Below are positions 4,740 to 25,708 of a stretch of DNA of 25,708 bases, one piece after another (position 1 is the stretch's first letter; every line of letters begins with the position of its first letter). This DNA is from Thermoproteota archaeon. GTDB taxonomy: Archaea; Thermoproteota; Nitrososphaeria; Nitrososphaerales; Nitrososphaeraceae. The stretch lies in the NCBI GenBank assembly GCA_046731995.1, contig JBKPMB010000294.1, positions 1 to 25,708 of the forward strand. Direction: 5' to 3'. Below the pieces are notes generated by a model. The model was not told the origin of the DNA and made no database searches. It worked only from the letters and a program-made list of their open reading frames with translations. The position numbers and the translations under genes are program-made.

Positions 4740-5600
4740 TTATTTTCTTACTATTCCTTTCATTACAGCAAACCCTTCAAGTATCTTTAAAATAAATATC
4801 CCTATGCTTAATAATGGATGTTTAATCAAGGTCTTCCAATTGCCATTTGCTAGCAATAGTTTAACTCTCGCTATTACGCTTGCCTGCACACGAGCGCGGT
4901 CTCGATATTTTTTCGAATATAATGGCATGTTCGTACAATAATAATGCTTCTTGTGAAGCCATTTAATAAGATCAATATCGCCTTCATCGTGTAATATAAA
5001 GGAAGAAGTTATTCTGGCATTAACATTCATCCCAATATTTTTTATCCTTTCTGGAAGAGTGCTTTCTTCAAAAAATATAATATCTTCATCAAATCCACCA
5101 GCAGCAATAACAAATTTTTTTCTAAAAAAACGAGCCGACTCTATCTCTGAGCCAGAGTACAAACCCTTCTCAAAATCTCTAACTTTAACCCAAAATCCAG
5201 AACCTATTGAATGCTCTGGTATTATTACTCCTGCAATATTATTATCATCTCCGGAACAAATTGTAATGCATTCTTCAATAACACGAGGCTGCAATATCAT
5301 ATCAGAGTCTATAAAAAGTAAAAATTCACCTCTTGATTTAGAAATAGCAACATTTTTTGCCTTACTTCTTTCATCGTCAATCAAAAGAATGTTTGCATTA
5401 AATTTGGATGCAATCTTAGTTGTATTATCAGAAGAAAGCTTATCAATTACAAAAATTTCAATATTCTTATAAGTTTGTTCTACTAGAGATTCCAGGCATT
5501 TTCCAATTGTCTTAGCTGAATTCACAGTAGGAATAATTACCGATACAAGTCCAGCAAAATCATTGTGATAATATGAATTTTCTTCATGTTCCTGGTTCAT
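4740..5600 (-). CDS. Glycosyltransferase family 2
   Basis: VSVIIPTVNSAKTIGKCLESLVEQTYKNIEIFVIDKLSSDNT is the N-terminal GT-A nucleotide-binding signature. A DSD (FIDSDM) DxD-like motif is present. Confidence 0.85.
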   Translation of the reverse strand: MNQEHEENSYYHNDFAGLVSVIIPTVNSAKTIGKCLESLVEQTYKNIEIFVIDKLSSDNTTKIASKFNANILLIDDERSKAKNVAISKSRGEFLLFIDSDMILQPRVIEECITICSGDDNNIAGVIIPEHSIGSGFWVKVRDFEKGLYSGSEIESARFFRKKFVIAAGGFDEDIIFFEESTLPERIKNIGMNVNARITSSFILHDEGDIDLIKWLHKKHYYCTNMPLYSKKYRDRARVQASVIARVKLLLANGNWKTLIKHPLLSIGIFILKILEGFAVMKGIVRK

Positions 5601-6087
5601 AGGAATATCTCAATCTTAAGTAAGTAGTTTATTTTACTATTCTATATACCAATTACTATCGGTCGTAAGCAAAGCGATATTACTAGAACATGAAGAATAG
5701 CATGCTAATGGATGTTAGCGAAAGCTATGATGCTGATGCGGAGTCAAATGAGAACCACAAAGCATTATCATTAACGCCAGATCAAAAAGGTAGCAATACG
5801 TGATCCTAACAATCCATCTTCAAAACTTAATCGTGTTAAGACATCAGCAGGAGCATCACACTACCGTCAGATATTTCTATAGCACATATACAGTTACTTA
5901 AGCATAGATGAAATTATAGGGCATTATCAAGACAAAAAGGAAACTGGCTTTTTCATGGATAAGATCTTATATAAGAGTACCAGATGAACACGCTGCATCA
6001 ATGCAGTAGTAGTATCTTTTTCTAGTATTTCTATCTACATGATTGACTTAAAAACTAGATATATAATAATATGGCTAAATACTTAAT

Positions 6088-7134
6088 ATGAACCACACAT
6101 GCTTCGCTTCTACAGTATTTTCAGTTGTAGTTAGCATATTACTTTTTGGTGTTTGGAGCAATGTCTATGTGTATGCACAACAATCATCTTCATCATCTAC
6201 ACCAATGGCATCTCTCCAACCATCACCAGCTGGTAGTAGTATCGCAACGATATCTCCACAACTCAAAGCAAAAATATGCGATCCTAGTAATCCAAGTCTC
6301 AAGGCAGTTAACACAACTGAATCGCTTATATGTGGTATTCCAAAAACAATAAAATCACCTGCATTATCATCACCGGCGCCGTCTACATCCTCATCAGCAG
6401 TTTCATCAACAACGCCGCAACAAACAACAACTACAAAGCCTATTGCGGCTGCTGCTCCAAAACAACAGCAGCAAATTGCAACTACAAATAATAATAATAC
6501 GAAAGCGGTTTCAGGAACAACTGGCGCAAAGGTCGCAACAATATCTCCAGTCGGCAATACCAGCAACAGATCATTATCATCAGCATTATCATCGCCACCA
6601 CCATTCCCTATAGTACCGCAACTAAACACTATAAGTCAACAACAACAGCATCAACAGCCACAAGTACTAACAACAATAAGCAATGGCACGGCTGGACAAA
6701 GCTACACATTTCAAACTTCAAATTCCCCACTACTGGGCTCTGGTAAACTAGTATATCTTGGCTATAATGGTGGTAGTACTGGTACTAGTAGTACTGATAG
6801 TAGCTCGCCAGACAAGAGCACTACAGATACCAAATCAAGTCATGATAGTGGCACTAGTACCTCAAAAGATAAGGAGAGATCCGATAACAACAAATCATCT
6901 GGTCATAAAAATGATGGTAGCAGCTCTCATACCAGCAGCTCTGATAAGAAGTCATCTGGTCATAAAAATGATAGTCACAAGCCATCATCATCATCAAAAA
7001 CAACATCTAAAGCAAAGGATCATACGCATCATGACAACAATGAAAGTAACAAAGCAAAGAAGGAGGGCAGCTCAAAAGGAAATAGTAATCACAAAGGTGG
7101 AGATAGCTTCTTTGATGGCGATCCCTTTTTTTAA
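6088..7134 (+). CDS. Secreted, intrinsically disordered Ser/Thr/Gln/Asn-rich protein with a His/Lys/Ser-rich C-terminal tail (mucin-like)
   Basis: The signal peptide is MNHTCFASTVFSVVVSILLFGVWSNVYVYAQQ. The rest is long S/T/Q/P low complexity. KSSGHKND is repeated (tcatctggtcataaaaatgat appears twice, 57 bp apart, around 6895 and 6952). The protein ends FFDGDPFF. Confidence 0.7.
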   Translation: MNHTCFASTVFSVVVSILLFGVWSNVYVYAQQSSSSSTPMASLQPSPAGSSIATISPQLKAKICDPSNPSLKAVNTTESLICGIPKTIKSPALSSPAPSTSSSAVSSTTPQQTTTTKPIAAAAPKQQQQIATTNNNNTKAVSGTTGAKVATISPVGNTSNRSLSSALSSPPPFPIVPQLNTISQQQQHQQPQVLTTISNGTAGQSYTFQTSNSPLLGSGKLVYLGYNGGSTGTSSTDSSSPDKSTTDTKSSHDSGTSTSKDKERSDNNKSSGHKNDGSSSHTSSSDKKSSGHKNDSHKPSSSSKTTSKAKDHTHHDNNESNKAKKEGSSKGNSNHKGGDSFFDGDPFF

Positions 7135-7427: not shown

Positions 7428-7865
7428 ATGACAGGAACTTCTAAACCACACAACTCTAGGAATAGCTATCGCACTACGAATGGCTGCAATATTGATTGAA
7501 GGAAGCAATTTCAGAGTGCTACAAGCATATGCATTGGTTATAGACATTCCACGAGTCCAAAAATAGCAGTATCAGGGAGTAATGTCTATGTGGTGCGGAT
7601 ATATGATAACACTTATTCTCAAATATTGTTGAGGTCCAGCAAAGATAGTGGAAATTTCTTCAGTAGCATTATAGTTAGTCTGAATAATATCACTGCTAAC
7701 ACGAATTCGCATACTCCCCACATAGCAGTGTCAGGGAGTAACGTGTATGTGGTGTAGAGTAGTAGTAGTGATAGCAGTACTAGTAACAATGCTATTACAG
7801 GAAATGGTAATAATCACATTTACTTTAAACGAGTCAGCGAAACATTCTTTCCTAGAAATACTTAA
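7428..7865 (+). pseudogene. Decayed BNR/sialidase-like repeat protein gene (frameshifts plus an in-frame TAG)
   Basis: The frame open from 7500 reads ...KIAVSGSNVYVVRIYDNTYSQILLRSSKDSGNFFSSIIVSLNNITANTNSHTPHIAVSGSNVYVV, then TAG (7755-7757, where W is expected), then ...NNHIYFKRVSETF. The 33-nt core atagcagt(a/g)tcagggagtaa(t/c)gt(c/g)tatgtggtg repeats 160 bp apart. An N-terminal ATG at 7428 and a hydrophobic segment are in other frames. The track shows no ORF of 60 aa or more here. Confidence 0.55.
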
Positions 7866-8166: not shown

Positions 8167-9393
8167 ATGAACAACAGGAATGCTCATCTAGAATCCAACA
8201 AAGTTCTCAAGTATAATGTAGAATGGTTGTTTCATTCCGGTATTAGAATAAGGAATGGTCCTAAAAAAGGAGCAATGTACGGTTGGAAAAATCTGAATCC
8301 GCCCTCATATCCATTCATATATAACGAGATAACAGGTTATGCGATTACTTCTTTCTTGTATATATACTCCGAACTAGGAGAGCCCGAAGCCCTTGAGGCT
8401 GCCAAAGATTCTGCATATTGGATAGTAAAAAATATTCGTAGCTCATCATCATCCTCATCATCATACCTTCTACCTGCAGGAAGTATCGAAACTCATAGCT
8501 TTAATCAAAAAGGCGATTTATCAAATCAAATTTACGCATTTGATAATGGCATGATCATAATAGGGTTGGTAAATCTATACAAGGTTATCAATGATACAAT
8601 TCTTTTGAAATATGCAGAGAACATGGCAAAATCATTAATTGAAAAATTTTTTGATGGATCAAAGTTGATTGCCGTCTTAGACAGGTTGTACAGACCAATA
8701 ACTAATAACACCAATCTTAATGATAGTAGTAGTGGTAGAGGTAGAAATGATATTAAATGGTCAACCGTCTCCGGTGCATATCATTGTAAACTATCATTAG
8801 CTTTATTGGATCTGTCGCTGCTAACAAAAAATGACATGTACTCTAAAGTATCTAATTCGCTATGCGAATTTGCACAAAAATTACAGAAAGCTGATGGCCG
8901 ATTTGCAACTAACACTAACTTAGAGACTATGACATACCTACATCCTCATCTGTATGCCTGCGAGGGACTCATTTACGCTGGAGTAAGGCAGCATAATGAC
9001 GCTTATTTTGCAGCAGGCCTTAAAGGCATCAGATGGGCGGCAAAACAAGTTAATTCATTGACTGGAGGGTTGCCAAGGATGATAGGTGGAGAATTTATAG
9101 AACAGTCGGATTGCATGGCTCAACTGCTCCGCCTGTTAATTCTATGTTATTTTCGAATAGAAGAGTCGATAGAAGAGCCATCACACAACCTAAGAGATGT
9201 TATTGAAAAACTACATTTCAGACTTTTAGATTTCTACATATCAGAAGGAAAAGACAGAGGAGCGATAAAATACCATCTTTCTTTAGATACTGCTTGCAGC
9301 TGGTGTACTATGTTTACTATGCAGGCATTACTGCTTTGGAAGAAAAGAAAGAAATTCCAAAACGTACAGAAATGGATAGATTACTTTATCTAA
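8167..9393 (+). CDS. Cytoplasmic protein, probably alpha/alpha-toroid fold (terpenoid-cyclase / prenyltransferase / C5-epimerase-like superfamily); exact function unknown
   Basis: 408-aa ORF with no signal peptide. It has recurring helical-hairpin signatures: EITGYAITSFLYIYSELGEPEALEAAKDSAYWI, YAFDNGMIIIGLVNLYKV, YHCKLSLALLDLS, HPHLYACEGLIYAG. A poly-Ser insert (SSSSSSSS) lies at about 8440-8466. The fold call is pattern recognition only. Confidence 0.6.
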   Translation: MNNRNAHLESNKVLKYNVEWLFHSGIRIRNGPKKGAMYGWKNLNPPSYPFIYNEITGYAITSFLYIYSELGEPEALEAAKDSAYWIVKNIRSSSSSSSSYLLPAGSIETHSFNQKGDLSNQIYAFDNGMIIIGLVNLYKVINDTILLKYAENMAKSLIEKFFDGSKLIAVLDRLYRPITNNTNLNDSSSGRGRNDIKWSTVSGAYHCKLSLALLDLSLLTKNDMYSKVSNSLCEFAQKLQKADGRFATNTNLETMTYLHPHLYACEGLIYAGVRQHNDAYFAAGLKGIRWAAKQVNSLTGGLPRMIGGEFIEQSDCMAQLLRLLILCYFRIEESIEEPSHNLRDVIEKLHFRLLDFYISEGKDRGAIKYHLSLDTACSWCTMFTMQALLLWKKRKKFQNVQKWIDYFI

Positions 9394-9659: not shown

Positions 9660-10301
9660 GTGTTGAAAGATGTCTCCATTTCGTTTGCAATGTTTTTGTC
9701 CACGCTCCCTGATATTGATCTGGTATTTAGATTATTTGGAGTTGAGATTGGTCATAGAAGTATAACACATAGTGCCATAATATGGACTATTGTAGGACTT
9801 GCATTCTTGGTAAAGTACAGGAAAATATCAGTTGTAGTTTATTTTTTGGCATACTTATCTCATATTATAATAGGAGATCTTGTAGTCGGTCCAATAAACC
9901 TGCTCTATCCAGTAGGCGATTTTATAGTTAGCGGTGGAATCATGTTCAATACTATCTCTGAAACAATAACAGAAGGAATTTTATTTGCTTTGATGACCAT
10001 AATCATTCTAAAGCAAAGTTTACATCAGGATGATACTAATAGTAGTAGTAGTAGCAAACAAAGGTCTCCTTTAGTTCACTATTCCACATTGGATCGCTTC
10101 TTTTATCCTATATTAATAGCAGAGGTTGCTATCTCGCCAATTTTTGTATTATCTAATAGATTTCAAGACTTTTCGAATTTGCTATCATTGTCACATATAG
10201 ACACAAATGTCATAGCTATTGTGTTACTTCATTTTATGATGACAATAGTAATTGCTTTCCTATGGATAAAATCGAAAAGAAGCATTCAAATTATAATATA
10301 A
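9660..10301 (+). CDS. Membrane-bound metal-dependent hydrolase, YdjM/DUF457 family (N-terminus disrupted; possibly a pseudogene)
   Basis: LPDIDLVFRLFGVEIGHRSITHS matches the PDxD...HRxxTHS signature, and the protein has 5-6 hydrophobic helices. The family-typical N-terminus MLFVGHISIAFLL is encoded upstream (ATG 9579) in the same frame, but it is cut off by TAA at 9630-9632. Confidence 0.6.
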   Translation: MLKDVSISFAMFLSTLPDIDLVFRLFGVEIGHRSITHSAIIWTIVGLAFLVKYRKISVVVYFLAYLSHIIIGDLVVGPINLLYPVGDFIVSGGIMFNTISETITEGILFALMTIIILKQSLHQDDTNSSSSSKQRSPLVHYSTLDRFFYPILIAEVAISPIFVLSNRFQDFSNLLSLSHIDTNVIAIVLLHFMMTIVIAFLWIKSKRSIQIII

Positions 10302-10712: not shown

Positions 10713-11183
10713 CTAATAGTTTGCTTTTACTTCGATGCCCCCTCCAGCTATTCGGTTCTCGCTCATATTGGCATAAGGATAGTTGTTATATTGGTCATGT
10801 ACGTAACGAGTAGTATCGTCATCGTGTGTTGTTATAGTATCTGTACTATTATAGAGCTTTTCTAGACGTGTAACTTGTTTTTCGTCTTCTCCTTCAACTT
10901 TTGATAACACCCGTTTGTATGTTCCGTCAACTATCAATAGTATTTTTTTAGTTTCAATTGGTTGCGTATATCTGTCATGTGAAAAAACATGAGATTTAGG
11001 AAATATATATTCAAATATCCATAAATAACCTGGGCTTGAAATTATCGTTATATCGTCACCGTTAGCACATTTGTTATTACTGTTACTGTTGTTGCTGCTA
11101 GCATAGCTATTGTATTGTATATCATATCCAACGAATGCTGCAGCCTCAAATTGAGGAAGCATGATATTTGTTGATATCAACAT
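10713..11183 (-). CDS. Hypothetical membrane-anchored/secreted protein (N-terminus probably frameshifted)
   Basis: 156-aa ORF. In-frame codons upstream of the ATG (up to 11228) encode SVIAICVIFGLVATT, which completes a TM helix with MLISTNIML. An ATG at minus 11260 (MTTTTIVCNNNQS...) is in another frame. A poly-N/S insert (SSNNSNSNNK) is present. Confidence 0.5.
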   Translation of the reverse strand: MLISTNIMLPQFEAAAFVGYDIQYNSYASSNNSNSNNKCANGDDITIISSPGYLWIFEYIFPKSHVFSHDRYTQPIETKKILLIVDGTYKRVLSKVEGEDEKQVTRLEKLYNSTDTITTHDDDTTRYVHDQYNNYPYANMSENRIAGGGIEVKANY

Positions 11184-11447
11184 GGTTGTAGCTACTAAAC
11201 CGAAAATTACACAAATTGCAATGACTGATTATTATTGCAAACGATGGTGGTGGTAGTCATTTTTGAAGTTATTATATCTTTTGCAACGATGCTAGTTACC
11301 TATCTTTTATTTACCATTCTATAAGAAACTAGTCTATCTAATTAAATATAACTCCATGAAGAAACTGTTCACATAAATTCGGTTTTATTAATCTGAAATG
11401 AAAAATATACTTTCCATACTGCTTATATATTATGTCTATACTTTAAT

Positions 11448-12305
11448 ATGAAAGTGACATCAGTAGCTGAAACTAGCCTTGACACTAAATCCATAATGCA
11501 AATTTCAGCAATAATTCCGGTTTATAATCAAGAAGCAGAGGTCCCTTTTTTATTAAAAAGGCTTAAAGAAGATCTCAATTCAACTTTACTAAATTATGAG
11601 ATTATCATTGTAAATGACGGCAGCCGCGACAACACCTTGGAAATTCTCAAAAAAGAAGAAGAATTAGATGAGCATATACGAGTTATTTCTTATCCTCAAA
11701 ATAAAGGCAAAGGATATGCTGTTAAAAAAGGAATTATGTATACACATGGTGATATAGTCCTATTTGTGGACGGAGATCTTGAGATCTCCCCTGATGCGAT
11801 AAAAGATTATGTAAAAGAACTTCGGAGTTGCGATCTCGTAATTGCCTCCAAAAGTCATCCATTATCCAAGGTAAATGTCCCTGCATCTAGGAAACTTCTA
11901 AGTAGAGCATTTAACTTTTATGTAAAAGTTGCTACGGGTATAAAATTAAAAGATACTCAAAGCGGTTTGAAAGCAGGGAACGGTAATGCCTTACGAAAGA
12001 TTTTCAATATTATTTGTATCGATCGTTACGCATTTGATGTTGAATTACTTGCTATTGCTACAGCTCTCAATATGAGGATAAAGGAACTGCCTATCGAAAT
12101 AACTCTTACTCATAGGTTCAAGATGAATGATATCGCAAGAATGTTTATAGATGTCATCGCAATTTCCCATAGGCTCAGAATCAAGCTGTGGTATCACAAG
12201 CAACTTAAACTATTGCTACAACATGGCATAGAAGAATCTGGTGGTAAAAAGTTAATTGTAAGTAAAAATGAACAAGTTGGCTACAAGAATAATGGTACCT
12301 ATTAA
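11448..12305 (+). CDS. Glycosyltransferase family 2, dolichyl/polyprenyl-phosphate hexose synthase-like (DPM1/AglD-like)
   Basis: The evidence is ISAIIPVYNQEAEVPFLLKRL, YEIIIVNDGSRDNT, FVDGDLE (DxD) and QSGLKAG. An alternative start is ATG 11496. Confidence 0.85.
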   Translation: MKVTSVAETSLDTKSIMQISAIIPVYNQEAEVPFLLKRLKEDLNSTLLNYEIIIVNDGSRDNTLEILKKEEELDEHIRVISYPQNKGKGYAVKKGIMYTHGDIVLFVDGDLEISPDAIKDYVKELRSCDLVIASKSHPLSKVNVPASRKLLSRAFNFYVKVATGIKLKDTQSGLKAGNGNALRKIFNIICIDRYAFDVELLAIATALNMRIKELPIEITLTHRFKMNDIARMFIDVIAISHRLRIKLWYHKQLKLLLQHGIEESGGKKLIVSKNEQVGYKNNGTY

Positions 12306-14748: not shown

Positions 14749-14938
14749 AATAATATTGGAAACATTAGAGAATCTAAGAGATATATACATGTGTACTTTC
14801 GATACATCTACCAATGGTAGATATCAAAGAAGGACTTGTTTAGTAATTTCAATTAAATTAGAGCGTGTCTCTCCCGCTTTAGTGATTTTATGAAGGAAGG
14901 ATTAGCACCCTCAATGTCATATTTGCTTCTTCTTGTTA

Positions 14939-16555: not shown

Positions 16556-16705
16556 TTACATGTGCCATTATATTCCCTTATCTATAGGTCTATGCTAATA
16601 CAACTATTTGAGGCGTCTAAGTATTACATTCTATCATAGACAGCACTAGTTGTGGTTACAATGGAGTCTTCAATAATCCCTTAATAAACTAGTATTCTAT
16701 TCTAA

Positions 16706-16836
16706 ACTATCTCCATCTAGTTTGATATTTTAAAGACGTATACTAAAGTGGAGATGATAGTACTGGTGGACAAGACGGCTCCAATTGTATTGCTGTAGTC
16801 AATGATGCTAATGCATGCCGAGAACAAGGAGCATAA
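16706..16836 (+). pseudogene. Truncated paralog of the 3939-4469 gene: promoter cassette (B3) plus an internally deleted coding stub
   Basis: 16706-16734 is identical to 3857-3885 (29 nt). 16750-16836 encodes GDDSTGGQDGSNCIAVVNDANACREQGA and a stop, versus ...DDQDADNCIVVLNDANACREQGQQ in the full gene. A 27-nt identical run gatgctaatgcatgccgagaacaagga occurs at 16804-16830 and 4110-4136. Confidence 0.6.
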
Positions 16837-16871
16837 TCAAAGCGATATCACTTTGGAATTGTTGCATACTT

Positions 16872-17767: not shown

Positions 17768-18883
17768 ATGACTTTTGCAATAATAACCGGTACTAGACCA
17801 GAAATAATAAAGCTTTTCCCCATCATGAAATTGTTTTCTGAAAAAGCAGTTGATTATAAGTTTATTCACACGGGTCAGCACTTTGATTATGAATTGTCCC
17901 TCAAGTTTATCGAGGAATTTGGAATTCGTAAACCAGACTACAATATCGTACTAAAAAAATGTGCCGAACTACCTCAAGAACAACAAACTGCTGAAATTAT
18001 GATGAAAATTGGCTATATCTTTCGGAATGAATTTTTCCCCTCACTGATATTGATTGAAGGCGATACAAATAGCGTTCTAGCAAGTGCGTTAACGGCTATT
18101 AAAGCCAATATTCCTATTGCACACCTTGAAGCAGGCTTAAGAAGTAATGATTGGAAGTCATTTGAAGAACACAATCGACGCATTGTAGATTGTGTTGCTG
18201 ATATACTATTTGCTCCAACTAGCGAATCTGCAAATAACCTAAAGATAGAGCATGTTCATGGTGATGTGCACATAGTAGGAAATACTGTGATGGATGCTAT
18301 CAAGTTATGTCTGCGATCTGATGAGAATTGTAGTGATGACAATAACAATATTCTAAAATATATTGAATCAAAAATTAATAGTCACTTTGTCCTAGTAACT
18401 CTGCACAGGGCAGAGAATGTGGATAACCGAGATTTCCTAAGGCATGTATTGACTGCATTATCTAATTCAAAGCATAACTACGTTTTTCCTATGCATCCTC
18501 GAACTTCAAAGAGAATTCGAGAATTTGGATTAGAAAATCTTATAACAAAGCAAATTATAGTTACTAATCCGGTGGGTTATTTCGATTTTTTGAGGCTACT
18601 TAGAATGTGCATGTTTATAATTACTGACTCAGGTGGAGTGCAGGAAGAAATAACGTCCCCATCTATAAACAAACGTGCAATAGTGTTGCGTAAATATACT
18701 GAAAGACCGGAGTCGATTCAGACTGGTCATGCTATATTATGCAAAGCTGAAAAAAATGAAATTCTTTCTGCAATTAAAAAAATCCAAACGGCTACAGAGA
18801 TTGCTACATTTCAATCTCCATACGGTTCAGGAAACTCAGCAGAAAAAATAGCTTCAATTCTCGAAAAAACGTCTTACGTATAA
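17768..18883 (+). CDS. wecB: UDP-N-acetylglucosamine 2-epimerase (non-hydrolysing)
   Basis: The evidence is IITGTRPEIIKLFPIM, HTGQHFDYELS, GDTNSVLASALTAIKANIPIAHLEAGLRS, EEHNRRIVDCVADILFAPT, TLHRAENVD, HPRT and ITDSGGVQEE. Canonical family motifs occur along the full length. Confidence 0.92.
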   Translation: MTFAIITGTRPEIIKLFPIMKLFSEKAVDYKFIHTGQHFDYELSLKFIEEFGIRKPDYNIVLKKCAELPQEQQTAEIMMKIGYIFRNEFFPSLILIEGDTNSVLASALTAIKANIPIAHLEAGLRSNDWKSFEEHNRRIVDCVADILFAPTSESANNLKIEHVHGDVHIVGNTVMDAIKLCLRSDENCSDDNNNILKYIESKINSHFVLVTLHRAENVDNRDFLRHVLTALSNSKHNYVFPMHPRTSKRIREFGLENLITKQIIVTNPVGYFDFLRLLRMCMFIITDSGGVQEEITSPSINKRAIVLRKYTERPESIQTGHAILCKAEKNEILSAIKKIQTATEIATFQSPYGSGNSAEKIASILEKTSYV

Positions 18884-19241: not shown

Positions 19242-20201
19242 TCACTCATAGACAGAGGTATCGCCATGATCATCTTTATCGTGTTTGTATTTGGAAGGAA
19301 TTTTAACCTCCTTATAATTCATTTCCATTGATCTTTCACTATCTGTGAATCTTCTATAATTAGTAGTCTGTTTGTTTGTATTATGTAACGAACGTGCGTT
19401 CTTCCAAATTAAGAAAAGATCTCTTCCCATTGTTGTAGTTTGTTTAATGATGTCAATTTTTGATCCCTCATCATGACTCCACTTAATTGGTACCTCTTTG
19501 ATTCGTAATCCGTGTATAGAGGCAATCACTAATAGCTCAGAGTCAAAAGCAAATCCGGTAGTTTTAATCTCTGGTAGAATTTTTAATACTTCGTTTCTTC
19601 TAAGTATCTTCAATCCACACTGAGGATCGTAAATTTGCAATTCCGACAATAGTCTGAAAGCGCTAGAGTAGATATGTGAAAAAATTGCCCTAGTCATTGG
19701 TCTTTTAATTGGGGGAAGATTTCCACGCAATGCTCTAGAGCCCACCACAATGTCGTAGTTATCTATGTGATCAAGTAGTCTCTGAATTTCTGAAGGATCT
19801 GCTGATAAATCAGCGTCCATATAAGCAATATAATTGCCACTTGCCTTCCTAGTCGCATTCATTAGAGCTCCGCCTTTCCCCATTCGAGCCTTGAGCGATA
19901 TCAGTTTTATCCTATTATCTTCAGACTGGAAGTCATCTACAATTTTAGCTGTATTATCTACACTGCCATCTACTGCAACGAGTATTTCGAAATCCCATTG
20001 CTCTTCTATACAGTATTGCAGTGTTCTTGTTAGACATTTTCTTATTCTTTTTTCTTCATTGTATGCTGGTATAATTATGCTAATGCTCAAATCAGGATAT
20101 GTACTAGCATGTTTGTCAGTGTGGCTTTTTTTATTGGAAATACTATTATTTGTGAGATCATGTTCTTTTAGATGACGCCTTTTTAAGGGATCTTCTTCCA
20201 C
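19242..20201 (-). CDS. Glycosyltransferase family 2, dolichyl-phosphate hexosyltransferase-like
   Basis: The evidence is ISIIIPAYNEEKRIRKCL, FEILVAVDGSVDNTAKIV, YMDADLSADPSEIQRL and PQCGLKIL. The start is either GTG 20201 (with a basic, His-rich 37-aa extension) or TTG 20090 directly before the conserved core. Confidence 0.85.
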   Translation of the reverse strand: MEEDPLKRRHLKEHDLTNNSISNKKSHTDKHASTYPDLSISIIIPAYNEEKRIRKCLTRTLQYCIEEQWDFEILVAVDGSVDNTAKIVDDFQSEDNRIKLISLKARMGKGGALMNATRKASGNYIAYMDADLSADPSEIQRLLDHIDNYDIVVGSRALRGNLPPIKRPMTRAIFSHIYSSAFRLLSELQIYDPQCGLKILRRNEVLKILPEIKTTGFAFDSELLVIASIHGLRIKEVPIKWSHDEGSKIDIIKQTTTMGRDLFLIWKNARSLHNTNKQTTNYRRFTDSERSMEMNYKEVKIPSKYKHDKDDHGDTSVYE

Positions 20202-20390: not shown

Positions 20391-21539
20391 TTATCGATTA
20401 TGCAAAAGTTTTATAATTTCTGTTAGCTGTTTTACTGAAATTTTATCCCAGTTTAGCATACTGGTAACCAAGGCTTTTGAGTTAGCGGCCAATGATTTCC
20501 GCTTTTCATCATCTGCAATGAGATTGGTAATAGACTTCGTCATTTGTTCCTTGTCACCTACTTCTACTTTAATTATGTCTTTACCAAAGATCTTGTATGC
20601 AGATAGATCATAACAAACAACTGCCAATTCACAAGCCATTGCTTCACTAACTGCTATACCCCACCCTTCTTCATAGCTTGGGGAAACAAATATTTTTGCA
20701 GATTTAATAGTAGCAATCTTTCGTTCTCCAAAAAGATAGCCGGTAAACGTTATATTTTTATCTAAAGCTTTATTTTTAACGGTTTTTACCAAATCAGAAT
20801 ATACTGGCCCATCACCAATAATTACGAGTTTTGCGTTTGGGAAGGATTTTAATACTTTTTCCCATATTGCAGGTAAATCATAAACTCCTTTTTTTTGATC
20901 TATTCTACCACAAAAACAAGCATCAAACTTTTTCCCATTTACTTTTACAGAATCTATAAGATTATGTTCTACTCCATTATCTGTTACAATGATTTTGTTA
21001 GCCTGAAACCCTTTGGCAATCAAGTCATTCTTTATGTCAGGATTTACTACAAAAATTAAGTCTGCCTTCTTACATAGAAATAAGCTCATCTTCTCATTTA
21101 TTAAGTTTATATTACTCCATATCCCTTGTTTATAAGTCCGAAAGGGTCTCAGTATGTGATGTACATAAACAACTAATCTGGATTTCAATCTTCTACATAA
21201 AATCAATGCAGGCAACACATCATAGAGCAGATGCGATGATGCTATAATCACATCTGGGCTTTGTTTGAATCTGAAAAGTGAACTCCGTAGAATTCGGAAC
21301 AGGTAGAATAGTGATTCTCTACTATGACCTCTTACTTCCTTTTCGTACGAAGAAAAATAAATATTGTAGTCATCAGCTGATAATAATATATTTTTAGAAA
21401 ACATGTAACCAGACTTGGGAATAATAACAGATACACTGTGCTCCTTATTCCATCTCTCCATCACATGTAATATGTGATATTCTCCGCCGGCAATCGTCTT
21501 TACGCCCCATCCATTAGCCATGACTAATATCCTGAACAC
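20391..21539 (-). CDS. Glycosyltransferase family 4 (GT-B, retaining type)
   Basis: FRILVMANGW...GGEYH is the N-terminal GT4 opening. SPSYEEGWGIAVSEAMACELAVVCYD is the E-x7-E motif. The GTG start at 21539 is preferred because the conserved RILV lies upstream of the first ATG. Confidence 0.85.
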   Translation of the reverse strand: MFRILVMANGWGVKTIAGGEYHILHVMERWNKEHSVSVIIPKSGYMFSKNILLSADDYNIYFSSYEKEVRGHSRESLFYLFRILRSSLFRFKQSPDVIIASSHLLYDVLPALILCRRLKSRLVVYVHHILRPFRTYKQGIWSNINLINEKMSLFLCKKADLIFVVNPDIKNDLIAKGFQANKIIVTDNGVEHNLIDSVKVNGKKFDACFCGRIDQKKGVYDLPAIWEKVLKSFPNAKLVIIGDGPVYSDLVKTVKNKALDKNITFTGYLFGERKIATIKSAKIFVSPSYEEGWGIAVSEAMACELAVVCYDLSAYKIFGKDIIKVEVGDKEQMTKSITNLIADDEKRKSLAANSKALVTSMLNWDKISVKQLTEIIKLLHNR

Positions 21540-21923: not shown

Positions 21924-22277
21924 TCATTTAACCATTTTCCATCTTTTCTCTCTTAATAATTCAACTACTAAGCATGAGGTTCCAACTATCAATAACCAGT
22001 AACTAATTATAACTAGCGGATTTGCGGAATATTTCATGACTGTCAATACTCCTACAATAAACAGCAATAATATTGCAGAACCTAAAGGGATCCTACCATC
22101 AAATCTCAGAGTAGCAAAAATAGGGATGAGAATTATAAATATTAATAATGTAGTGATTTCGTTTTTTTGTAGAAGAAAGTATGATATAATAATAGACGCA
22201 GTTATCAGAATGAAAGGAATTGTTTTCTTAACAAATTTTTTGGATACCTGCATTATATGAATATCCATTAGCTCCAA
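21924..22277 (-). CDS. Small integral membrane protein (3-4 helices), function unknown
   Basis: The track ORF is 117 codons from TTG 22277. ATG 22268 or 22253 (MQVSKKFVKKTIPFILI...) are more plausible starts. Hydrophobic segments are separated by short loops, and the C-terminus is basic (REKRWKMVK). Confidence 0.5.
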   Translation of the reverse strand: MELMDIHIMQVSKKFVKKTIPFILITASIIISYFLLQKNEITTLLIFIILIPIFATLRFDGRIPLGSAILLLFIVGVLTVMKYSANPLVIISYWLLIVGTSCLVVELLREKRWKMVK

Positions 22278-22410: not shown

Positions 22411-22420
22411 TTATACTATA
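22411..22420 (+). promoter_or_regulatory. TATA-like box (ttatactata) centred about 26 nt upstream of ATG 22442
   Basis: The spacing is consistent with a leaderless transcript of the giant membrane-protein gene. Confidence 0.3.
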
Positions 22421-22441
22421 ACAAAAAGGGTTGACTAGGCT

Positions 22442-25400
22442 ATGAACTCCTATTTGGTGAATATAAAGAGATACGATTATTTAATTGCCTCAATAGGCTA
22501 TTTCCTAATAGCATTATTCATTTTAAATAGGATTTTATTTTTCTCTCCTGGTACAATTGGATTTTTTCATGACTGGCCAATAGGTCCTTATCCTGAAATG
22601 AACCGATCCTATGCAAATGGTGGCCTCTATGTTTGGAATTCCCAGGTAGGAAACATACTTTTCCCTACTGACTGGATATTTCGTCTAAGTCTTCTTCCAT
22701 TTTCGTTTCTGAATGGAGAAATTCTTACTAAAGGGATATTACTTTTGGTCATAACTCTAAGTGGGTTTGGTGCTTTTTACCTTGGAAAGCAGCTTAAGCT
22801 AAGTCCGTTTTCTTCATTTGCAGCCGGAGTTTTATTTATTTTCTCATCGATAGTATTTACAAGAATCGTAGCTGGGCATATTTATTATCTTATCTCATAT
22901 TTTCTGAGTCCATTTATAGTTGCTTTCTTTCTGAAAGGCAGAGAAGAGGTTAAGAAAAATAGACAACGGGATAAAAAGGAAGTAAATTATAAAAACTTCA
23001 AGTACTTTGTAATTGCGGGTATTTTAACATCCTTTGCAGCTATTCAGCTCCAATTTTTAGTAATGATATTTCTTGTTTTATTAGTCTTTACTGTTCTTGA
23101 CTTTGGAAGAATTAAAAAATCTGCTATAGGTCTGATAATAGTTTTTTCTATCGCATCCTTAGTTAATTTGTCTCCTATAATACCTAGCGACGCCTTATCA
23201 ACCAAGTCTTCTTTATCGCATTTTAATCCCACTACTCTTTTATCATTCGACGAGGTGACTCATGCGTCTGATTTAACAAAAAGTTTAAGATTATTAGGAT
23301 ACGAGCTTCATCCATATAGCTATACAGAGATAGGTACTTCAGATGATCATTTAATTGAGTATGATATTAAAAGAATAATGGAAAATAAACCAAATCTGGT
23401 AGCAAATCCTAATTTTGTATTAGTAGGTGGTAGTGGTAGTAGTAATAATAGTAGTAGTAACACTAGCAATAGTAGTAATAGTAATAACAATACTAGTCAA
23501 TCAAAGCTGCCTATAAATTGGACTGATCCCTCTGGAAATTGTAATCACATTTTTAAGTGTATAGTTTTTCAATTTAAAAAAACTACTGCTGGATTGCAAA
23601 ATAGTACAAATAGCTTTCAAATCTCTACAAATAAAACATCTCCTAATCAAAAAACTTGGTCATGGATTTATGGTAAAGAAATAAACGCTAATCCTGGAGA
23701 ACAATATGGAGTCATAACTCATATGAAATTAAACGAGTTTGCTATACGATCTCATATAGGCATAGCAGGATATAATGATACTTCAAAGGTGTGGATGGAA
23801 ATCATACAATGTCCTTCAGGTGGTAATGTGCAGCCAGAATGGCATGAGTACAGCTGTGCGATAACAATACCAAATGGCATTACCAAAATAAGACCAATAT
23901 TAAATGCTGGATGGTCTTCTCAGCCAGGTAAGGAAGCTATCACTTTGTTTGGTGCTATGTGGATAAGTAAGATAGACTATGCAAGTGGTATCATCCCATC
24001 ATGGATATTTTCTTTAGATTTTTTGATTCCTATAACTGGATTCTCAACTCTCATTTTTAGAAAAGACAAGTATACGCTTTCGTTTGCTATGATATCTTTG
24101 ATTGGATTATTCCTTTTGAAAGGACCTAATCCCCCGTTACAGAATATTTTTAACTTTATTTTTATTCACGGTTTTTATATTTTTAGAGAAGTTTGGCACG
24201 TCGCTTTCTTGTATGGATTTGGTATATCATTTTTAATCGTATTTTTTCTGGAGAAAATAATAACAATAACGTCTTCATTTTCTAAGCTTGGGAGTTATTC
24301 AAATATCTATAAGCATCAGAGGCATCAACATCATCATAATAATTTTTTTCATAAATTAGCATCCTCATCATTATTTTTCTTCTACTACGTAAATGATAAA
24401 CTCAAAAATTATTACAAAATTATTATATCTTCCTTTTTAATTTCTCTTATAGTAATTTCTAATGGATATCCTTTATTGCTAGGAAATTTTGGAGGATATC
24501 TGCAGACCTATGATTTTACAAAAGATTATCATACATTATATAACAATCTTCTTACAAATAGTACTTTTAATACCTTAATGCTTCCTTCGCTTGGTCCAAT
24601 TCAATATGATGGTTTAAAGTTATCAGGCCTAGATCCTTTGAGTACCTATTCTTCTAGCAACATATTCTATCAGGATTATGATGGTGTATCCTATCCACTA
24701 TTGGGTACAATTACTTGGTTACATACCGTTATGCAGGAGAACAAGACTAGCAATCTAGGAAAGTTTCTAAGTGGTTTTGGAATAAAATATGTAATTTTAA
24801 GAAAGGATTTTGTATCCAATTATCCACTTTTTACCACATTAGGAAATTACGGTCCATTTCTAAAAAGGTGGTATGCATCTCTTGAACCATTTTTGGATGC
24901 TCAAAATGATCTAACCGTGTTGTCGAATACACCCCATTATAAAATATACGAGAATAGCAATAATGCAAAAAAATTTTTTATCCCTTTAATAGCTACAAAA
25001 GGAATATATGATTATCGAAGTCTGCTTTATATCTCTAATTTTACTTCACTTTCTAACATAGCAGTATACCCATCAGATTATGGCGACAAGGCTTACACGA
25101 AATTTGATAATTCAAGGGATGAAAAATCCACCTATGATTTTGAAGATTTAGGAAAGTATGCCACATCGTACACTGCAGCTAAAGGATGGACAACCAATAG
25201 AGATTGGTTTGGATATGATTATTTATTGGCGTCCCGAGTTCACACAGGTGCATTTAGTACTGTACGCAATTCTACATTTTCATTTGATTTTCCTACTCCG
25301 CATAAATATGAAAATAAACCTATTGAAATGTGGATGAGGGTTTTGACTTGGCCCAATGGAAAGACTGTAAGCATCAGTATTAATGGAAAACAATCTCGGT

Positions 25401-25708
25401 ATTCATTATTCTCTTTATATCCCAATTTTTCTTTCATCAAGATTTTTGATGGAAGGTCCACTGATGGATTATATCATTTATCAATTACAAATATCGTAGG
25501 AAGTAATTATATCGAAGGCATTTATATGAAGGAAAAAAGTCATAGCGGAGATCGCAAAGATATAAATAACATTTTCTTGATTGACACACAGAACAAACCA
25601 AATCTGGTAGCAAATCCTAATTTTGTATTAGTAGGTGGTAGTGGTAGTAGTAATAATAGTAGTAGTAACACTAGCAATAGTAGTAATAGTAATAACAATA
25701 CTAGTCAA
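22442..25708 (+). CDS. Partial (3'-open) gene for a large polytopic membrane protein of at least 1089 aa. It looks like a GT-C-type glycosyltransferase (AftD/DUF3367-like architecture) carrying the jelly-roll module in an external loop. It is not in the supplied ORF track.
   Basis: I translated every codon from ATG 22442 to 25708 by hand and found no stop. TAG at 22436-22438 closes the frame upstream. Hydrophobic blocks lie at about 22442-23200 and 24000-24480. Soluble parts contain FHDWPIGPYPE, GNFGGYLQTYDF, MLPSLGPIQYDG, GIKYVILRKDF and HYKIYEN. The GT-C assignment is an inference from architecture. Confidence 0.85.
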   Translation, partial: MNSYLVNIKRYDYLIASIGYFLIALFILNRILFFSPGTIGFFHDWPIGPYPEMNRSYANGGLYVWNSQVGNILFPTDWIFRLSLLPFSFLNGEILTKGILLLVITLSGFGAFYLGKQLKLSPFSSFAAGVLFIFSSIVFTRIVAGHIYYLISYFLSPFIVAFFLKGREEVKKNRQRDKKEVNYKNFKYFVIAGILTSFAAIQLQFLVMIFLVLLVFTVLDFGRIKKSAIGLIIVFSIASLVNLSPIIPSDALSTKSSLSHFNPTTLLSFDEVTHASDLTKSLRLLGYELHPYSYTEIGTSDDHLIEYDIKRIMENKPNLVANPNFVLVGGSGSSNNSSSNTSNSSNSNNNTSQSKLPINWTDPSGNCNHIFKCIVFQFKKTTAGLQNSTNSFQISTNKTSPNQKTWSWIYGKEINANPGEQYGVITHMKLNEFAIRSHIGIAGYNDTSKVWMEIIQCPSGGNVQPEWHEYSCAITIPNGITKIRPILNAGWSSQPGKEAITLFGAMWISKIDYASGIIPSWIFSLDFLIPITGFSTLIFRKDKYTLSFAMISLIGLFLLKGPNPPLQNIFNFIFIHGFYIFREVWHVAFLYGFGISFLIVFFLEKIITITSSFSKLGSYSNIYKHQRHQHHHNNFFHKLASSSLFFFYYVNDKLKNYYKIIISSFLISLIVISNGYPLLLGNFGGYLQTYDFTKDYHTLYNNLLTNSTFNTLMLPSLGPIQYDGLKLSGLDPLSTYSSSNIFYQDYDGVSYPLLGTITWLHTVMQENKTSNLGKFLSGFGIKYVILRKDFVSNYPLFTTLGNYGPFLKRWYASLEPFLDAQNDLTVLSNTPHYKIYENSNNAKKFFIPLIATKGIYDYRSLLYISNFTSLSNIAVYPSDYGDKAYTKFDNSRDEKSTYDFEDLGKYATSYTAAKGWTTNRDWFGYDYLLASRVHTGAFSTVRNSTFSFDFPTPHKYENKPIEMWMRVLTWPNGKTVSISINGKQSRYSLFSLYPNFSFIKIFDGRSTDGLYHLSITNIVGSNYIEGIYMKEKSHSGDRKDINNIFLIDTQNKPNLVANPNFVLVGGSGSSNNSSSNTSNSSNSNNNTSQ
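23387..23500 (+). repeat. 114-bp perfect direct repeat, copy 1 (encodes KPNLVANPNFVLVGGSGSSNNSSSNTSNSSNSNNNTSQ)
   Basis: A character-by-character comparison with 25595-25708 shows 114/114 identity, in the same reading frame of the same ORF. Confidence 0.95.
23511..23975 (+). other. Jelly-roll / carbohydrate-binding-like module (copy in the giant membrane protein)
   Basis: LPINWTDP...TWSWIYGKEINANPGEQYGVITHMKLNEFAIRSHIGIAGYNDTSKVW...PEWHEYSCAITIPNGITKIRPILNAGWSSQPGKEAITLFGAMWISKI. The pattern (W...PG..Y....vK...........W.ey...i.iP.....ir..L) fits CBM4_9/galactose-binding-like domains. Confidence 0.8.
25595..25708 (+). repeat. 114-bp perfect direct repeat, copy 2; the window ends at its last base
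   Basis: Identical to 23387-23500. Confidence 0.95.

Follow-up and report, generated by a model that had tools for sequence, protein, structure and literature searches.

A cell-envelope glycan island with a predicted AftD-like GT-C glycosyltransferase on a soil Nitrososphaeraceae contig

Results

The contig and its genes

The window (the whole stretch of DNA analysed, 25,708 nt) corresponds to nearly the entire source contig (25.7 kb); protein P0078, on a 25,709-nt NCBI contig, was 100% identical to the propeller of the window. The contig is one complete low-GC contig from the genome of a soil Nitrososphaeraceae (ammonia-oxidising archaeon), and it carries a genuine, mosaic island of genes for building a cell-surface glycan. 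An earlier reading made from the sequence only had described its components as intact; all of the genes which it named were present, at or near the places where it had put them, but the giant gene is incomplete, being cut by the end of the window. The features are as follows (strand in parentheses).

4740-5600 (-): GT2a, soluble-enzyme-type GT2 glycosyltransferase; one hydrophobic helix at the C-terminus (PF00535, E = 4e-25)
6088-7134 (+): Ser/Thr/Gln/Asn-rich low-complexity protein with a hydrophobic N-terminal segment (from the translation)
8167-9393 (+): cytoplasmic alpha/alpha-barrel (toroid)-like protein (weak, partial GH47 match, 23.2 bits vs. a 22.9-bit cutoff)
9660-10301 (+): YdjM-family membrane protein (PF04307, E = 2.6e-12)
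10713-11183 (-): 156-aa ORF; its match to a PMT_2-type GT-C is confined to the C-terminal soluble domain
11448-12305 (+): GT2b, polyprenyl-phosphate sugar synthase-like GT2 (NCBIfam and PDB matches)
12817-14814 (-): secreted GSDH/PQQ-type six-bladed propeller (PF07995, E = 1.8e-35)
14939-16555 (-): right-handed beta-helix protein, similar to tailspikes, lyases or epimerases (AF2 model, pLDDT 75.9)
16872-17648 (-): putative SAM-dependent methyltransferase (weak Pfam matches, under the gathering scores)
17768-18883 (+): WecB, non-hydrolysing UDP-GlcNAc 2-epimerase (TIGR00236, 294 bits vs. a 210-bit cutoff)
19242-20201 (-): GT2c, polyprenyl/dolichyl-phosphate sugar synthase-like GT2 without TM helix (NCBIfam and PDB matches)
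20391-21539 (-): GT4 (GT-B) cytoplasmic glycosyltransferase (PF00534, E = 2e-28)
21924-22277 (-): 117-aa membrane protein with four predicted helices, divergent from the GT-C gene
22442-25708 (+): AftD-like GT-C glycosyltransferase, as judged from the AF2 model and Foldseek; cut by the contig end
23498-23974 (+): CBM4/CBM16-like beta-sandwich module inserted in a GT-C loop (identity to the propeller module; Foldseek)
25592-25708 (+): copy 2 of a 117-nt intragenic repeat, 99% identical to copy 1 (23384-23500); the contig stops here

The contig terminates within the giant GT-C gene, and the second copy of the repeat is the likely assembly break point. As the earlier reading had stated, no Wzx, Wzy, ABC-exporter or AglB gene was found in the window (Pfam and NCBIfam scans), and tblastn with flippase and polytopic-membrane proteins of the related loci detected none there either. 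Note that, because the window is nearly the whole contig and stops inside the GT-C gene, the absence of a flippase from it carries little weight.

The GT-C protein and its four-helix neighbour

The window encodes at least 1089 aa of the giant protein (full-length relatives, 1331-1367 aa). It had no significant Pfam match, and the family profile detected no PDB relative by sequence; some homologues matched PF19830 or PF11847, with a precomputed PF11847 match for the family member P0047. In the AF2 model (pLDDT 72.7, pTM 0.70), two short helices lie between TM1 and TM2 and TM3 is broken, as described for GT-C enzymes. The top Foldseek match in the PDB was AftD (6w98; E = 7e-6, 1170 aligned columns), and the order of the matches was AftD (6w98/6wby), EmbB, EmbA, EmbC and Pmt1-Pmt2; no STT3, AglB or PglB structure was among the best 50. 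The global TM-scores against AftD were low (0.37/0.31), which is expected for multi-domain models, yet not decisive, and the identity was about 9-10%. Among the 20 sequences of alignment A1, D44 (FHDW motif, loop after TM1) was invariant, and among the 56 of alignment A2 it was conserved to at least 90%; its position just past TM1 is comparable with that of the essential K39/D41 of AftD. The archaeo_STT3 NCBIfam match was weak (E = 0.0024). The modelled structure supports the assignment of the giant protein to the GT-C fold, as an archaeal relative of mycobacterial AftD, which is the arabinan enzyme of the analogy drawn when the protein was first called GT-C-like.

The 117-aa protein was kept beside the GT-C in 11 of the 27 close related loci. 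In three homologues (P0259, P0316 and P0333) it was fused to the GT-C, following its last TM helix, and this layout matches TM12 followed by TM13-16 in AftD; the TM13-16 bundle is, according to the AftD paper, unique to AftD among the Aft/Emb enzymes. The 117-aa protein, which matched neither GtrA nor any other Pfam family, probably represents the C-terminal four-helix bundle of the GT-C as the product of a separate gene.

The shared CBM module and the propeller

The propeller and the giant protein share a module, as had been proposed (propeller aa 434-587 vs. giant protein aa 353-511; 57% identity, E = 2e-51). With Foldseek it resembled CBM4-2 (2y64), CBM16 (2zey) and CBM4 (1gui) with TMt of 0.55-0.61, and PF02018 was carried by related proteins. 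A second copy starts at the window end. In the propeller gene, the module is inserted at about 13054-13515; the propeller keeps the HNGGR motif in comparison with 2ism and has a hydrophobic segment at the N-terminus. The GSDH-CBM propeller adjoined the GT-C in 14 of the 27 close loci.

Cytoplasmic glycosyltransferases

All three GT2 enzymes matched PF00535 (E = 4e-25 to 7e-34). GT2b had PgfS, ArnC and PpgS as the best NCBIfam matches and GtrB, ArnC and PfDPMS in the PDB; GT2c had PgfS, ArnC, AglJ and dolichyl-phosphate hexose transferase (all under the cutoffs), with PDB matches including ArnC, GtrB (5ekp) and PfDPMS (5mlz, over aa 35-239). Their earlier assignment to the dolichyl-phosphate hexose synthase type therefore stands as a resemblance, in which GT2a has no part; its PDB matches were chondroitin and heparosan synthases and GalT1, with neither GtrB nor DPMS among them. 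Note that neither GT2b nor GT2c has the TM helices seen in GtrB, ArnC and PfDPMS, and both score far under every NCBIfam equivalog cutoff; alternatively, they could be initiators in the manner of AglJ, or ordinary GT2 enzymes whose substrate is a lipid-linked oligosaccharide.

Conservation of the neighbourhood

Neighbourhoods were counted in 27 close related loci and 9 distant loci (Bathyarchaeia and others). Orthologues of GT4 (40-70% identity) were near the GT-C in 10/27 close and 8/9 distant loci, and those of GT2a were beside it in 7/27 and 6/9. GT2b orthologues (61-63% identity) adjoined the flippase in L007 and L013-L016, with one at 40% in Bathyarchaeia (L010), and GT2c orthologues (48-52% identity) were present in L002, L005, L008 and L017. 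The distant loci had a co-directional array of GT2b, GT4, methyltransferase, GT2a, GT4 and GT-C. The GT-C, GT4, GT2a and a b- or c-type GT2 were thus co-conserved from Nitrososphaeraceae to Bathyarchaeia, and the 4-TM protein, the CBM-propeller and a flippase were added in the close loci; together these form the co-conserved core.

Of the related Nitrososphaeraceae loci, 12 had 6 kb of flank or more; in 11 of these, a Wzx/MOP flippase (PF13440) was located at a distance of 0.45-2.4 kb from the GT-C, and the remaining locus had no downstream sequence. These flippases were 39-56% identical among themselves. Since the contig ends mid-gene and relatives have the flippase near the GT-C, the absence of a flippase from the window is most likely a truncation artefact, and extrapolation from the related loci places the flippase of this system most probably just past the contig end. 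Among the adjacent genes by which a standard pathway would be recognised, only the flippase was found: the related loci contained no identifiable Wzy or AglB, and likewise no initiating phosphoglycosyltransferase, polymerase or oligosaccharyltransferase. An unassigned polytopic membrane family was present in five loci (L005, L007, L008, L020 and L022).

The other genes of the island were hardly linked to the GT-C. WecB was found in 0/27 close loci and one distant locus (L034); the Ser/Thr-rich protein had no Pfam match and no counterpart in any related locus; the YdjM-family gene was in none of the related loci and is thus not linked to the system. The methyltransferase had an orthologue at 35% identity in L008, and related loci contained other methyltransferases. 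The toroid-like protein belongs to a widespread conserved family (>240 homologues; at least 50% identity among the 120 matches listed) with no sequence relatives in the PDB; its gene was beside the GT-C in no related locus, and one homologue lay in another glycan island, which also had a Polysacc_synt flippase. The 156-aa ORF was 39% identical to aa 334-476 of a PMT_2 protein (L002:20344-21774), and the homology reached position 11225, upstream of the ATG; the sequence suggests that it is probably a gene remnant.

As for the beta-helix protein, no Pfam match and no signal peptide were found. Its Foldseek matches were phage tailspikes (4ru5, 7eea, 6f7k and HK620), AlgE4/E6 and chondroitinase B. 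Only four homologues were present in a collection of 5.8 billion proteins; one of them (55% identical) was in a tightly packed virus-like operon without Pfam matches. The local GC was 0.41 (vs. about 0.34 around), and the gene was present in 1/27 close loci, with homologues near GT-C genes in L012 and L030. The protein is probably accessory or virus-derived. The WecB, methyltransferase, toroid, Ser/Thr-rich and beta-helix genes are regarded as strain-variable cargo, not as fixed parts of the system.

Discussion

The predicted GT-C agrees with AftD (6w98; PF11847) in its architecture: the GT-C membrane domain is N-terminal, the large extracytoplasmic domain is soluble and contains beta-sandwich CBMs, a re-entry TM helix precedes a four-helix bundle (fused in three homologues, a separate gene here), and TM1 is followed by an acidic residue (D44 vs. 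D41 of AftD). The predicted enzyme differs in being archaeal and very distant in sequence and in carrying an extra CBM in a membrane-domain loop; moreover, neither decaprenyl-phospho-arabinose genes nor an acyl carrier protein partner is evident in the archaeal system.

In three-component systems (GtrA/GtrB/Gtr*, CsbB/GtcA/YfhO and Citrobacter ORF15/ORF14/ORF12), a cytoplasmic lipid-phosphate-sugar synthase and an exporting flippase serve an extracytoplasmic GT-C, often with a CBM (PMC11127046, PMC8035078); the Citrobacter system combines a MATE-type MOP-superfamily flippase with a CBM-bearing GT-C (PMC11127046). The same logic is seen here, with GT2b and GT2c resembling GtrB and PgfS. However, the window itself has no flippase, its GT2 enzymes lack TM anchors, the archaeal GT-C is much larger and resembles AftD, not the Gtr or YfhO proteins, and a conserved GT4, GT2a, CBM-propeller and 4-TM subunit are added. 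An archaeal precedent for the scheme is found in Haloferax volcanii, where AglD (DPM-type GT2) loads mannose on dolichyl phosphate, the flippase-like AglR moves it outward and AglS transfers it outside as the final mannose of the S-layer N-glycan (PMC3871713). Haloferax decorates an AglB-dependent N-glycan, whereas no AglB was seen here, and the sugars may go to a wall polysaccharide instead of an S-layer protein.

Thus, we consider that the core is an archaeal split AftD-type GT-C system with lipid-linked sugar synthases and a nearby flippase, following a known scheme (rough probability, 0.55). The folds, the shared module, the gene neighbourhoods and the fusions come from the analysis itself, whereas the sugars, the type of donor, the acceptor and the direction of each step are presumptive in the following outline. 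GT4 and GT2a would assemble a glycan on the cytoplasmic side, with dolichyl phosphate as its carrier, GT2b and GT2c would load dolichyl phosphate with single sugars, and a Wzx/MOP-family flippase would move the lipid-linked sugars outward. The catalytic GT-C subunit (from 22442), with its separately encoded four-helix membrane subunit (21924-22277), would then take the sugar from its lipid-phosphate donor and add it to a polymeric acceptor, which the CBM4/16-like modules would hold, and the secreted GSDH-type propeller, with the same CBM, would act on or bind the same glycan.

A clearly less probable but still serious alternative is a standard Wzx-dependent block pathway, in which the GT2 and GT4 enzymes make a repeat unit on dolichyl (pyro)phosphate, the neighbouring Wzx flips it, and the GT-C, as a polymerase, ligase or oligosaccharyltransferase, moves the whole unit to a chain or protein, functionally replacing Wzy, WaaL or AglB. 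The most constant neighbour of the GT-C is indeed a Wzx-type flippase; Wzx-family flippases (PF13440/PF01943) cluster with GT2 and GT4 in the related loci, and with Wzy and AglB found in no locus the role is vacant. A DPM-type GT2 acting as an AglJ-like initiator is known in Haloferax (PMC3871713), the GT-C superfamily includes oligosaccharyltransferases, and the giant protein had the weak archaeo_STT3 match. However, the top structural matches are AftD, Emb and PMT rather than STT3, AglB or PglB. The AftD, Emb and PMT enzymes use single-sugar lipid-phosphate donors, and such donors are also served by MOP-superfamily flippases (AglR, which is a Wzx-family protein, and the MATE-family ORF14). 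Unlike in a Wzx/Wzy pathway, the conserved membrane partner here is the GT-C; neither the window nor the related loci had a recognisable Wzy, chain-length regulator or initiating phosphoglycosyltransferase, although the polytopic membrane family of five loci could be the Wzy instead.

The version of the sequence-only reading, which is improbable as a whole, was a self-contained system free of flippase and polymerase, in which the GT-C extends a chain from Dol-P-hexoses, the propeller and the beta-helix protein modify the polymer by trimming, oxidation or epimerisation, and the Ser/Thr-rich protein is the acceptor. It is partly supported: the GT-C fold and the polyprenyl-phosphate-GT-like GT2 enzymes were confirmed, AlgE4/E6 epimerases and PL6 lyases are among the matches of the beta-helix fold, and homologues of the beta-helix gene occur near GT-C genes. 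In the streptococcal Pgf pathway, PgfS, the PgfE epimerase and the GT-C enzymes PgfM1/M2 O-glycosylate Ser/Thr-rich disordered regions (PMC12041528), and the window likewise has an epimerase, GT2 enzymes, a GT-C and a Ser/Thr-rich protein, PgfS being the top NCBIfam match of both GT2b and GT2c. However, the PgfS score was 85 against a 500-bit equivalog cutoff, and PgfM1/M2 belong to the YfhO type of GT-C. Furthermore, relatives keep a flippase next to the GT-C, and the beta-helix, WecB, toroid and Ser/Thr-rich genes accompany it in only 0-1 of the 27 close loci, so that of the proposed co-occurrence of GT-C, propeller and beta-helix genes only the propeller part holds. A remodelling role of the beta-helix protein is also at odds with the lack of a signal peptide and the viral tailspike appearance.

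Similarly improbable is the absence of any single system, that is, a hypervariable glycan island gathering unrelated genes, remnants and virus-derived cargo for several glycans, to which the PMT_2 remnant, the foreign GC of the beta-helix gene, the varying content of the close loci (two GT4/GT-C cassettes in tandem in L001) and the presence of both b- and c-type GT2 in the window, vs. one in related loci, would point, but against which stand the defined subset co-conserved from Nitrososphaeraceae to Bathyarchaeia and the gene fusion tying the core together.

The combination had been described as a pathway that could not be named. A GT2 lipid-phosphate-sugar synthase, a flippase and a GT-C are, however, the components of known multi-component transmembrane glycosylation (GtrABC, AglD/AglR/AglS, arabinan), and the pathway of this archaeon looks like one of a known type, not a new one.

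Gene content of the window and the end of the contig

The ORF listing and the profile scans of the window bore out the gene inventory that had been drawn up from the sequence alone. The genes considered here are listed below.

4740-5600, minus strand: GT2 glycosyltransferase (GT2a)
6088-7134, plus strand: Ser/Thr/Gln-rich protein with an N-terminal hydrophobic segment
8167-9393, plus strand: toroid protein, cytoplasmic, with a weak partial GH47-type match
9660-10301, plus strand: YdjM membrane protein
10713-11183, minus strand: 156-aa ORF
11448-12305, plus strand: GT2 glycosyltransferase (GT2b)
12817-14814, minus strand: GSDH/PQQ-type propeller
14939-16555, minus strand: beta-helix protein, 538 aa, without a Pfam match
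16872-17648, minus strand: methyltransferase, with weak profile scores
17768-18883, plus strand: WecB (TIGR00236)
19242-20201, minus strand: GT2 glycosyltransferase (GT2c)
20391-21539, minus strand: GT4 glycosyltransferase
21924-22277, minus strand: 117-aa membrane protein with four predicted helices
from 22442, plus strand: giant membrane protein, 1089 codons present, reading frame open at the last base of the window

WecB scored 294.4 bits against the equivalog model TIGR00236 (cutoff, 210.15 bits) over aa 1-367 of 371, and matched PF02350 with E = 5e-90. The division of the GT2 enzymes into two types, made from the sequence, also held at the family level. The closest solved structures for GT2b and GT2c were the polyprenyl-phosphate glycosyltransferases GtrB, ArnC and PfDPMS (E = 1e-14 to 1e-18), whereas GT2a matched soluble GT2 enzymes. 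The best NCBIfam models for GT2b and GT2c were PgfS, ArnC, AglJ and dolichyl-phosphate hexose transferase, with scores that in every case fell far short of the equivalog cutoff; no membrane anchor was predicted in either protein. By sequence they are most similar to polyprenyl/dolichyl-phosphate sugar synthases of the GtrB/DPM type, and are putatively assigned as such.

Two further regions were noted. The gene at 1776-3395 (plus strand) encodes a multicopper oxidase (PF07732/PF07731/PF00127) whose N-terminal linker is rich in Gln and Ser and which ends in a plastocyanin-like domain; next to it is a Na+/H+ exchanger (31-1254). Such an architecture would fit an ammonia-oxidising archaeon. The region 7470-7739 holds no ORF of at least 80 aa; in tblastn it is weakly similar (36-42% identity, E = 7e-7) to a secreted 293-aa protein of a related locus (L002:21841-22722), and it may be a decayed gene or an overlooked small ORF.

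The propeller and the toroid protein were identical to NCBI proteins (P0078 and P0125 in our searches) of one 25,709-nt contig, so the window is essentially the entire assembled contig. Exact look-ups meant to reach sequence beyond the window, with the GT4 (from two start codons), WecB and the propeller, matched no record. The gene for the giant protein contains a 117-nt direct repeat (23384-23500 and 25592-25708, 99% identity), which encodes an Asn/Ser-rich linker ahead of a carbohydrate-binding module (CBM), and the second copy runs right up to the contig end. Full-length relatives of the giant protein are 1331-1367 aa long and carry a second CBM at the position of the repeat. The contig therefore appears to break at an intragenic repeat/module duplication; most likely it broke at this repeat, and the downstream sequence is absent for technical reasons.

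Predicted AftD-like fold of the giant membrane protein

About 65 relatives of the giant protein (39-71% identity) were found in soil metagenomes and Nitrososphaeraceae MAGs, and remoter ones in Thermoproteota and Bathyarchaeia MAGs. The profile of the family had no relative among the PDB sequences; a link was obtained by fold comparison alone. The AF2 model built from a 56-sequence alignment (A2; pLDDT 72.7, pTM 0.70) was confident in the membrane helices and the beta-sandwich domains. In the Foldseek search of the PDB with this model, mycobacterial AftD ranked first (6w98; E = 7e-6, probability 1.0, 1170 aligned columns), the next full-length matches were EmbB, EmbA, EmbC and Pmt1-Pmt2, and no STT3, AglB or PglB structure was among the top 50 matches.

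The published description of AftD lists as hallmarks of the GT-C fold a TM3 that is broken and short helices that lie between TM1 and TM2. The model agrees with this in its helices at aa 11-33, 51-59, 78-87, 92-117 and 122-133/136-144: TM3 is kinked or broken, and juxtamembrane helices separate TM1 from TM2. The first extracytoplasmic loop contains an acidic residue, D44 of an FHDW motif right after TM1, which was invariant in a 20-sequence alignment (A1) and at least 90% conserved in A2. In AftD, K39 and D41 are essential; they likewise follow TM1, and D44 may be their counterpart by position. The large extracytoplasmic domain is modelled with CBM-fold beta-sandwiches.

Pfam hmmscan gave no significant match, to PF11847 and PF19830 or otherwise, for the window protein or its homologue P0001, and these two families appeared only as precomputed weak matches in some homologues. 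On the strength of the model, we treat the giant protein as one that would work like an AftD-type GT-C, and do not assign it to PF11847 on the basis of sequence; the GT-C part of a three-component system is likewise represented by it at the level of the predicted fold only. An AglB-like role was rejected on the weak STT3 score (TIGR04154, 16 bits, E = 0.0024; cutoff, 450 bits) and the lack of an STT3 structure among the top 50 fold matches. Pfam and NCBIfam profile scans of the window found no DPA-pathway or ACP genes. A literature search returned no paper on DUF6311, nor one on Nitrosocosmicus together with GT-C enzymes.

The 117-aa four-helix protein

An exhaustive search with the 117-aa protein gave 91 representatives. 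Full-length relatives of the giant protein end in a single TM helix (the window copy is truncated), and in three members of the GT-C family, P0259 (1509 aa), P0316 and P0333, the 117-aa protein is fused directly behind the C-terminal TM helix. This layout mimics that of AftD, in which TM12 is followed by a four-helix bundle (TM13-16) described as unique to AftD among the Aft/Emb enzymes. By this analogy, the window would encode an AftD-like enzyme split into two proteins. A GtrA-type flippase was also considered for the 117-aa protein and is unsupported, with no GtrA or other Pfam match even at E <= 10; the three fusions point to a GT-C subunit instead. Two more fusions of the 117-aa protein were seen: one with a protein of PKD/Ig repeats (P0283), and one in which it is joined to the N-terminus of P0317, a polytopic protein of 610 aa.

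Gene neighbourhood and flippase

Thirty-eight loci encoding relatives of the giant protein (designated L001 onward) were searched with every window protein; 27 non-redundant loci formed the close set and nine loci (Bathyarchaeia and others) the distant set. Note that many of the close loci are short, so that the counts are lower bounds.

Occurrence of window proteins in the close loci
CBM-propeller: 14/27
117-aa membrane protein: 11/27
GT4: 10/27
GT2c-type: 9/27 (matches overlap those of GT2b-type)
GT2b-type: 8/27 (matches overlap those of GT2c-type)
GT2a: 7/27
Beta-helix protein: 1/27
WecB, window methyltransferase, toroid protein, YdjM and Ser/Thr-rich protein: 0/27 each

The GT2b-type and GT2c-type matches were usually the same gene. 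Conservation of the neighbourhood, proposed as a check on the sequence-only reading, extends to the GT-C with the propeller but not to the GT-C with the beta-helix protein. In the nine distant loci, GT2b/c, GT2a and GT4 genes lie directly upstream of the GT-C gene, and in L036 all four form one co-directional array. L034 was the only locus with WecB alongside the GT-C: a WecB homologue (35% identical, 939-2070) is flanked there by GT2a and GT4, just ahead of the GT-C gene. The closest related contig (L001:1-13914) carries two tandem GT4 + GT-C cassettes, the GT-C copies being located at 1066-5169 and from 13528, each with a GT4 ahead of it; between them are a propeller, another GT4 and a Wzx flippase.

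Profile scans, and tblastn with the membrane proteins of related loci, detected no flippase, polymerase, ABC exporter or AglB in the window. A protein matching PF13440/PF01943 (Wzx, MOP superfamily) is encoded a few kb downstream of the GT-C gene in L001 and immediately downstream of it in the MAG locus L007, and unannotated polytopic proteins of 440-480 aa that adjoin the GT-C in L002, L005, L006 and L008 were 39-56% identical to these two. Of the 12 close loci flanked by at least 6 kb, 11 contain a flippase orthologue, whose distance from the GT-C gene is 0.45-2.4 kb; the sole exception, L030, is without downstream sequence. In the window, 22 kb precede the GT-C gene and nothing follows it; by comparison with L007, L013-L016, L024 and L026-L028, its flippase is therefore expected directly past the end of the contig.

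The sequence-only reading had recognised no flippase, polymerase, exporter or AglB in the window, and had named flippase, polymerase or AglB genes, if directly adjacent and sufficient for a standard pathway, as evidence against it. For the flippase this evidence is now at hand from the related loci, whereas neither Wzy nor AglB was found in any of them. Wzy, Wzz and PGT families gave no match in the window or among the annotated neighbours; of the parts of a Wzx/Wzy pathway, Wzx alone was found, in related loci only. Where a contig stops within a gene that contains repeats, failure to find a flippase on it is no evidence for a new pathway.

Two further kinds of membrane protein were observed in the GT-C loci. 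A polytopic family without a Pfam match (about 9-17 predicted helices) occurs in five loci (L007:73-1314, L008:3385-5211, L005:4200-5952, L020 and L022) and may comprise polymerases of a divergent Wzy type or other enzymes that act on the carrier lipid. A 1549-aa polytopic protein without a Pfam match, adjoining the flippase and the GT-C (L006:2030-6679, minus strand), may be a further giant GT-C-like enzyme.

Propeller and shared module

The module that had been noticed in both the propeller and the giant protein was confirmed (propeller aa 434-587 and giant-protein aa 353-511, 57% identical, E = 2e-51), and the coding sequences of the copies are 72-78% alike. The module in the giant-protein model (aa 392-510) resembled CBM4, CBM16 and CBM22 structures in Foldseek (TM-score 0.5-0.61), and homologues of the giant protein carry PF02018. 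The module is promiscuous in these archaea: many other GSDH proteins have it, as do PMT and PMT_2 GT-C enzymes, proteins with an alginate-lyase domain and one with a spermidine-synthase domain. Sharing of the module is thus suggestive of a link between the GT-C and the propeller, but is non-specific. The propeller itself scored 123 bits against PF07995 and retains the active-site motif (His-x-Gly-Gly-Arg), its HNGGR being aligned with HSGGR of 2ism. We take the His of this motif to be the catalytic base, as in sGDH.

Beta-helix and other accessory genes

The beta-helix gene had been read as part of a remodelling system; virus-derived or strain-variable cargo is a better description of it than a fixed remodelling enzyme. 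The protein has no signal peptide, its gene lies in a GC-rich patch, and only four homologues were found among 5.8 billion proteins. The AF2 model (pLDDT 75.9) is a right-handed parallel beta-helix, with 56 PDB matches at E <= 1e-3 led by the tailspikes 4ru5 and 7eea and by AlgE6 (5lw3); phage tailspikes were the best, and AlgE4/E6 epimerases and chondroitinase B/PL6 lyases were also matched. The beta-helix gene and part of the methyltransferase gene (14939-17000) have a GC content of 0.41, compared with 0.33-0.35 around them. The homologue P0122 (55% identical) is encoded in a tightly packed co-directional operon of proteins without Pfam matches, which looks viral; P0123 has fibre-like N-terminal 'TNKT' repeats; a third homologue is in a different glycan island, L012. 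The GC patch, the virus-like operon and the fibre-like repeats together suggest acquisition from an archaeal virus. A search for the protein in viral contigs gave no match.

The toroid protein belongs to a large conserved family with members in other glycan islands, never beside a GT-C gene, and has no PDB sequence relative. The region 10713-11225 (minus strand), including the 156-aa ORF, is similar to a PMT_2-type GT-C (L002:20344-21774) solely in the soluble domain at the C-terminus of the latter (aa 320-476); the ORF is probably a remnant of such a gene, with the membrane domain missing.

Discussion

The reading best supported by these data is a multi-component transmembrane pathway that works with a lipid carrier. 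The cytoplasmic GT4 and GT2a would build a glycan on dolichyl phosphate, GT2b and GT2c would make Dol-P-sugars, and a MOP flippase would export the lipid-linked sugars outward. The AftD-like GT-C, together with the four-helix subunit and the CBMs, would then transfer sugars onto a polymeric acceptor, and the CBM-propeller would act on the same glycan. The main rival holds that the GT-C receives whole flipped units, which would give it a Wzy-, ligase- or OST-like role; the fold matches of the model to AftD, Emb and PMT favour single-sugar donors instead.

This combination of genes had been regarded as a pathway without a name. Named precedents for the lipid-carrier mechanism exist, however: GtrABC, the Citrobacter system with a MATE flippase and a CBM-bearing GT-C (PMC11127046), archaeal AglD/AglR/AglS (PMC3871713), and, with Ser/Thr-rich regions as its targets, the streptococcal Pgf pathway (PMC12041528). 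The system is a putative archaeal split AftD-like enzyme with a CBM-sharing propeller partner, and does not make a new pathway category.

Nitrosocosmicus-type ammonia oxidisers have no S-layer genes, a wall about 18 nm thick and glycocalyx-like filaments (PMC11559005). A host of this type is plausible for the window because of the low GC content (about 35%) and the Nitrososphaeraceae affiliation of the relatives. A more specific scenario, which we consider unlikely as it stands, is that S-layer-less, Nitrosocosmicus-like soil archaea assemble the polymer of their thick wall or glycocalyx on the outer side of the membrane, the enzyme being an AftD-type GT-C that is split into a catalytic protein and a separately encoded four-helix-bundle subunit and is fed by Dol-P-sugars, and that the secreted PQQ-type propeller with the same CBM is an obligatory partner that oxidises or edits the nascent polymer. 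If true, Archaea would have an equivalent of mycobacterial arabinan assembly, to which a redox step outside the cell has been added.

The conserved AftD-like GT-C, the flippase, the GT2 and GT4 enzymes and the CBM-propeller provide a concrete candidate for the maker of the Nitrosocosmicus-type envelope. On this reading the AftD architecture, hitherto described across Actinobacteria, extends into Archaea, where, by analogy, the four-helix bundle may be a separate gene.
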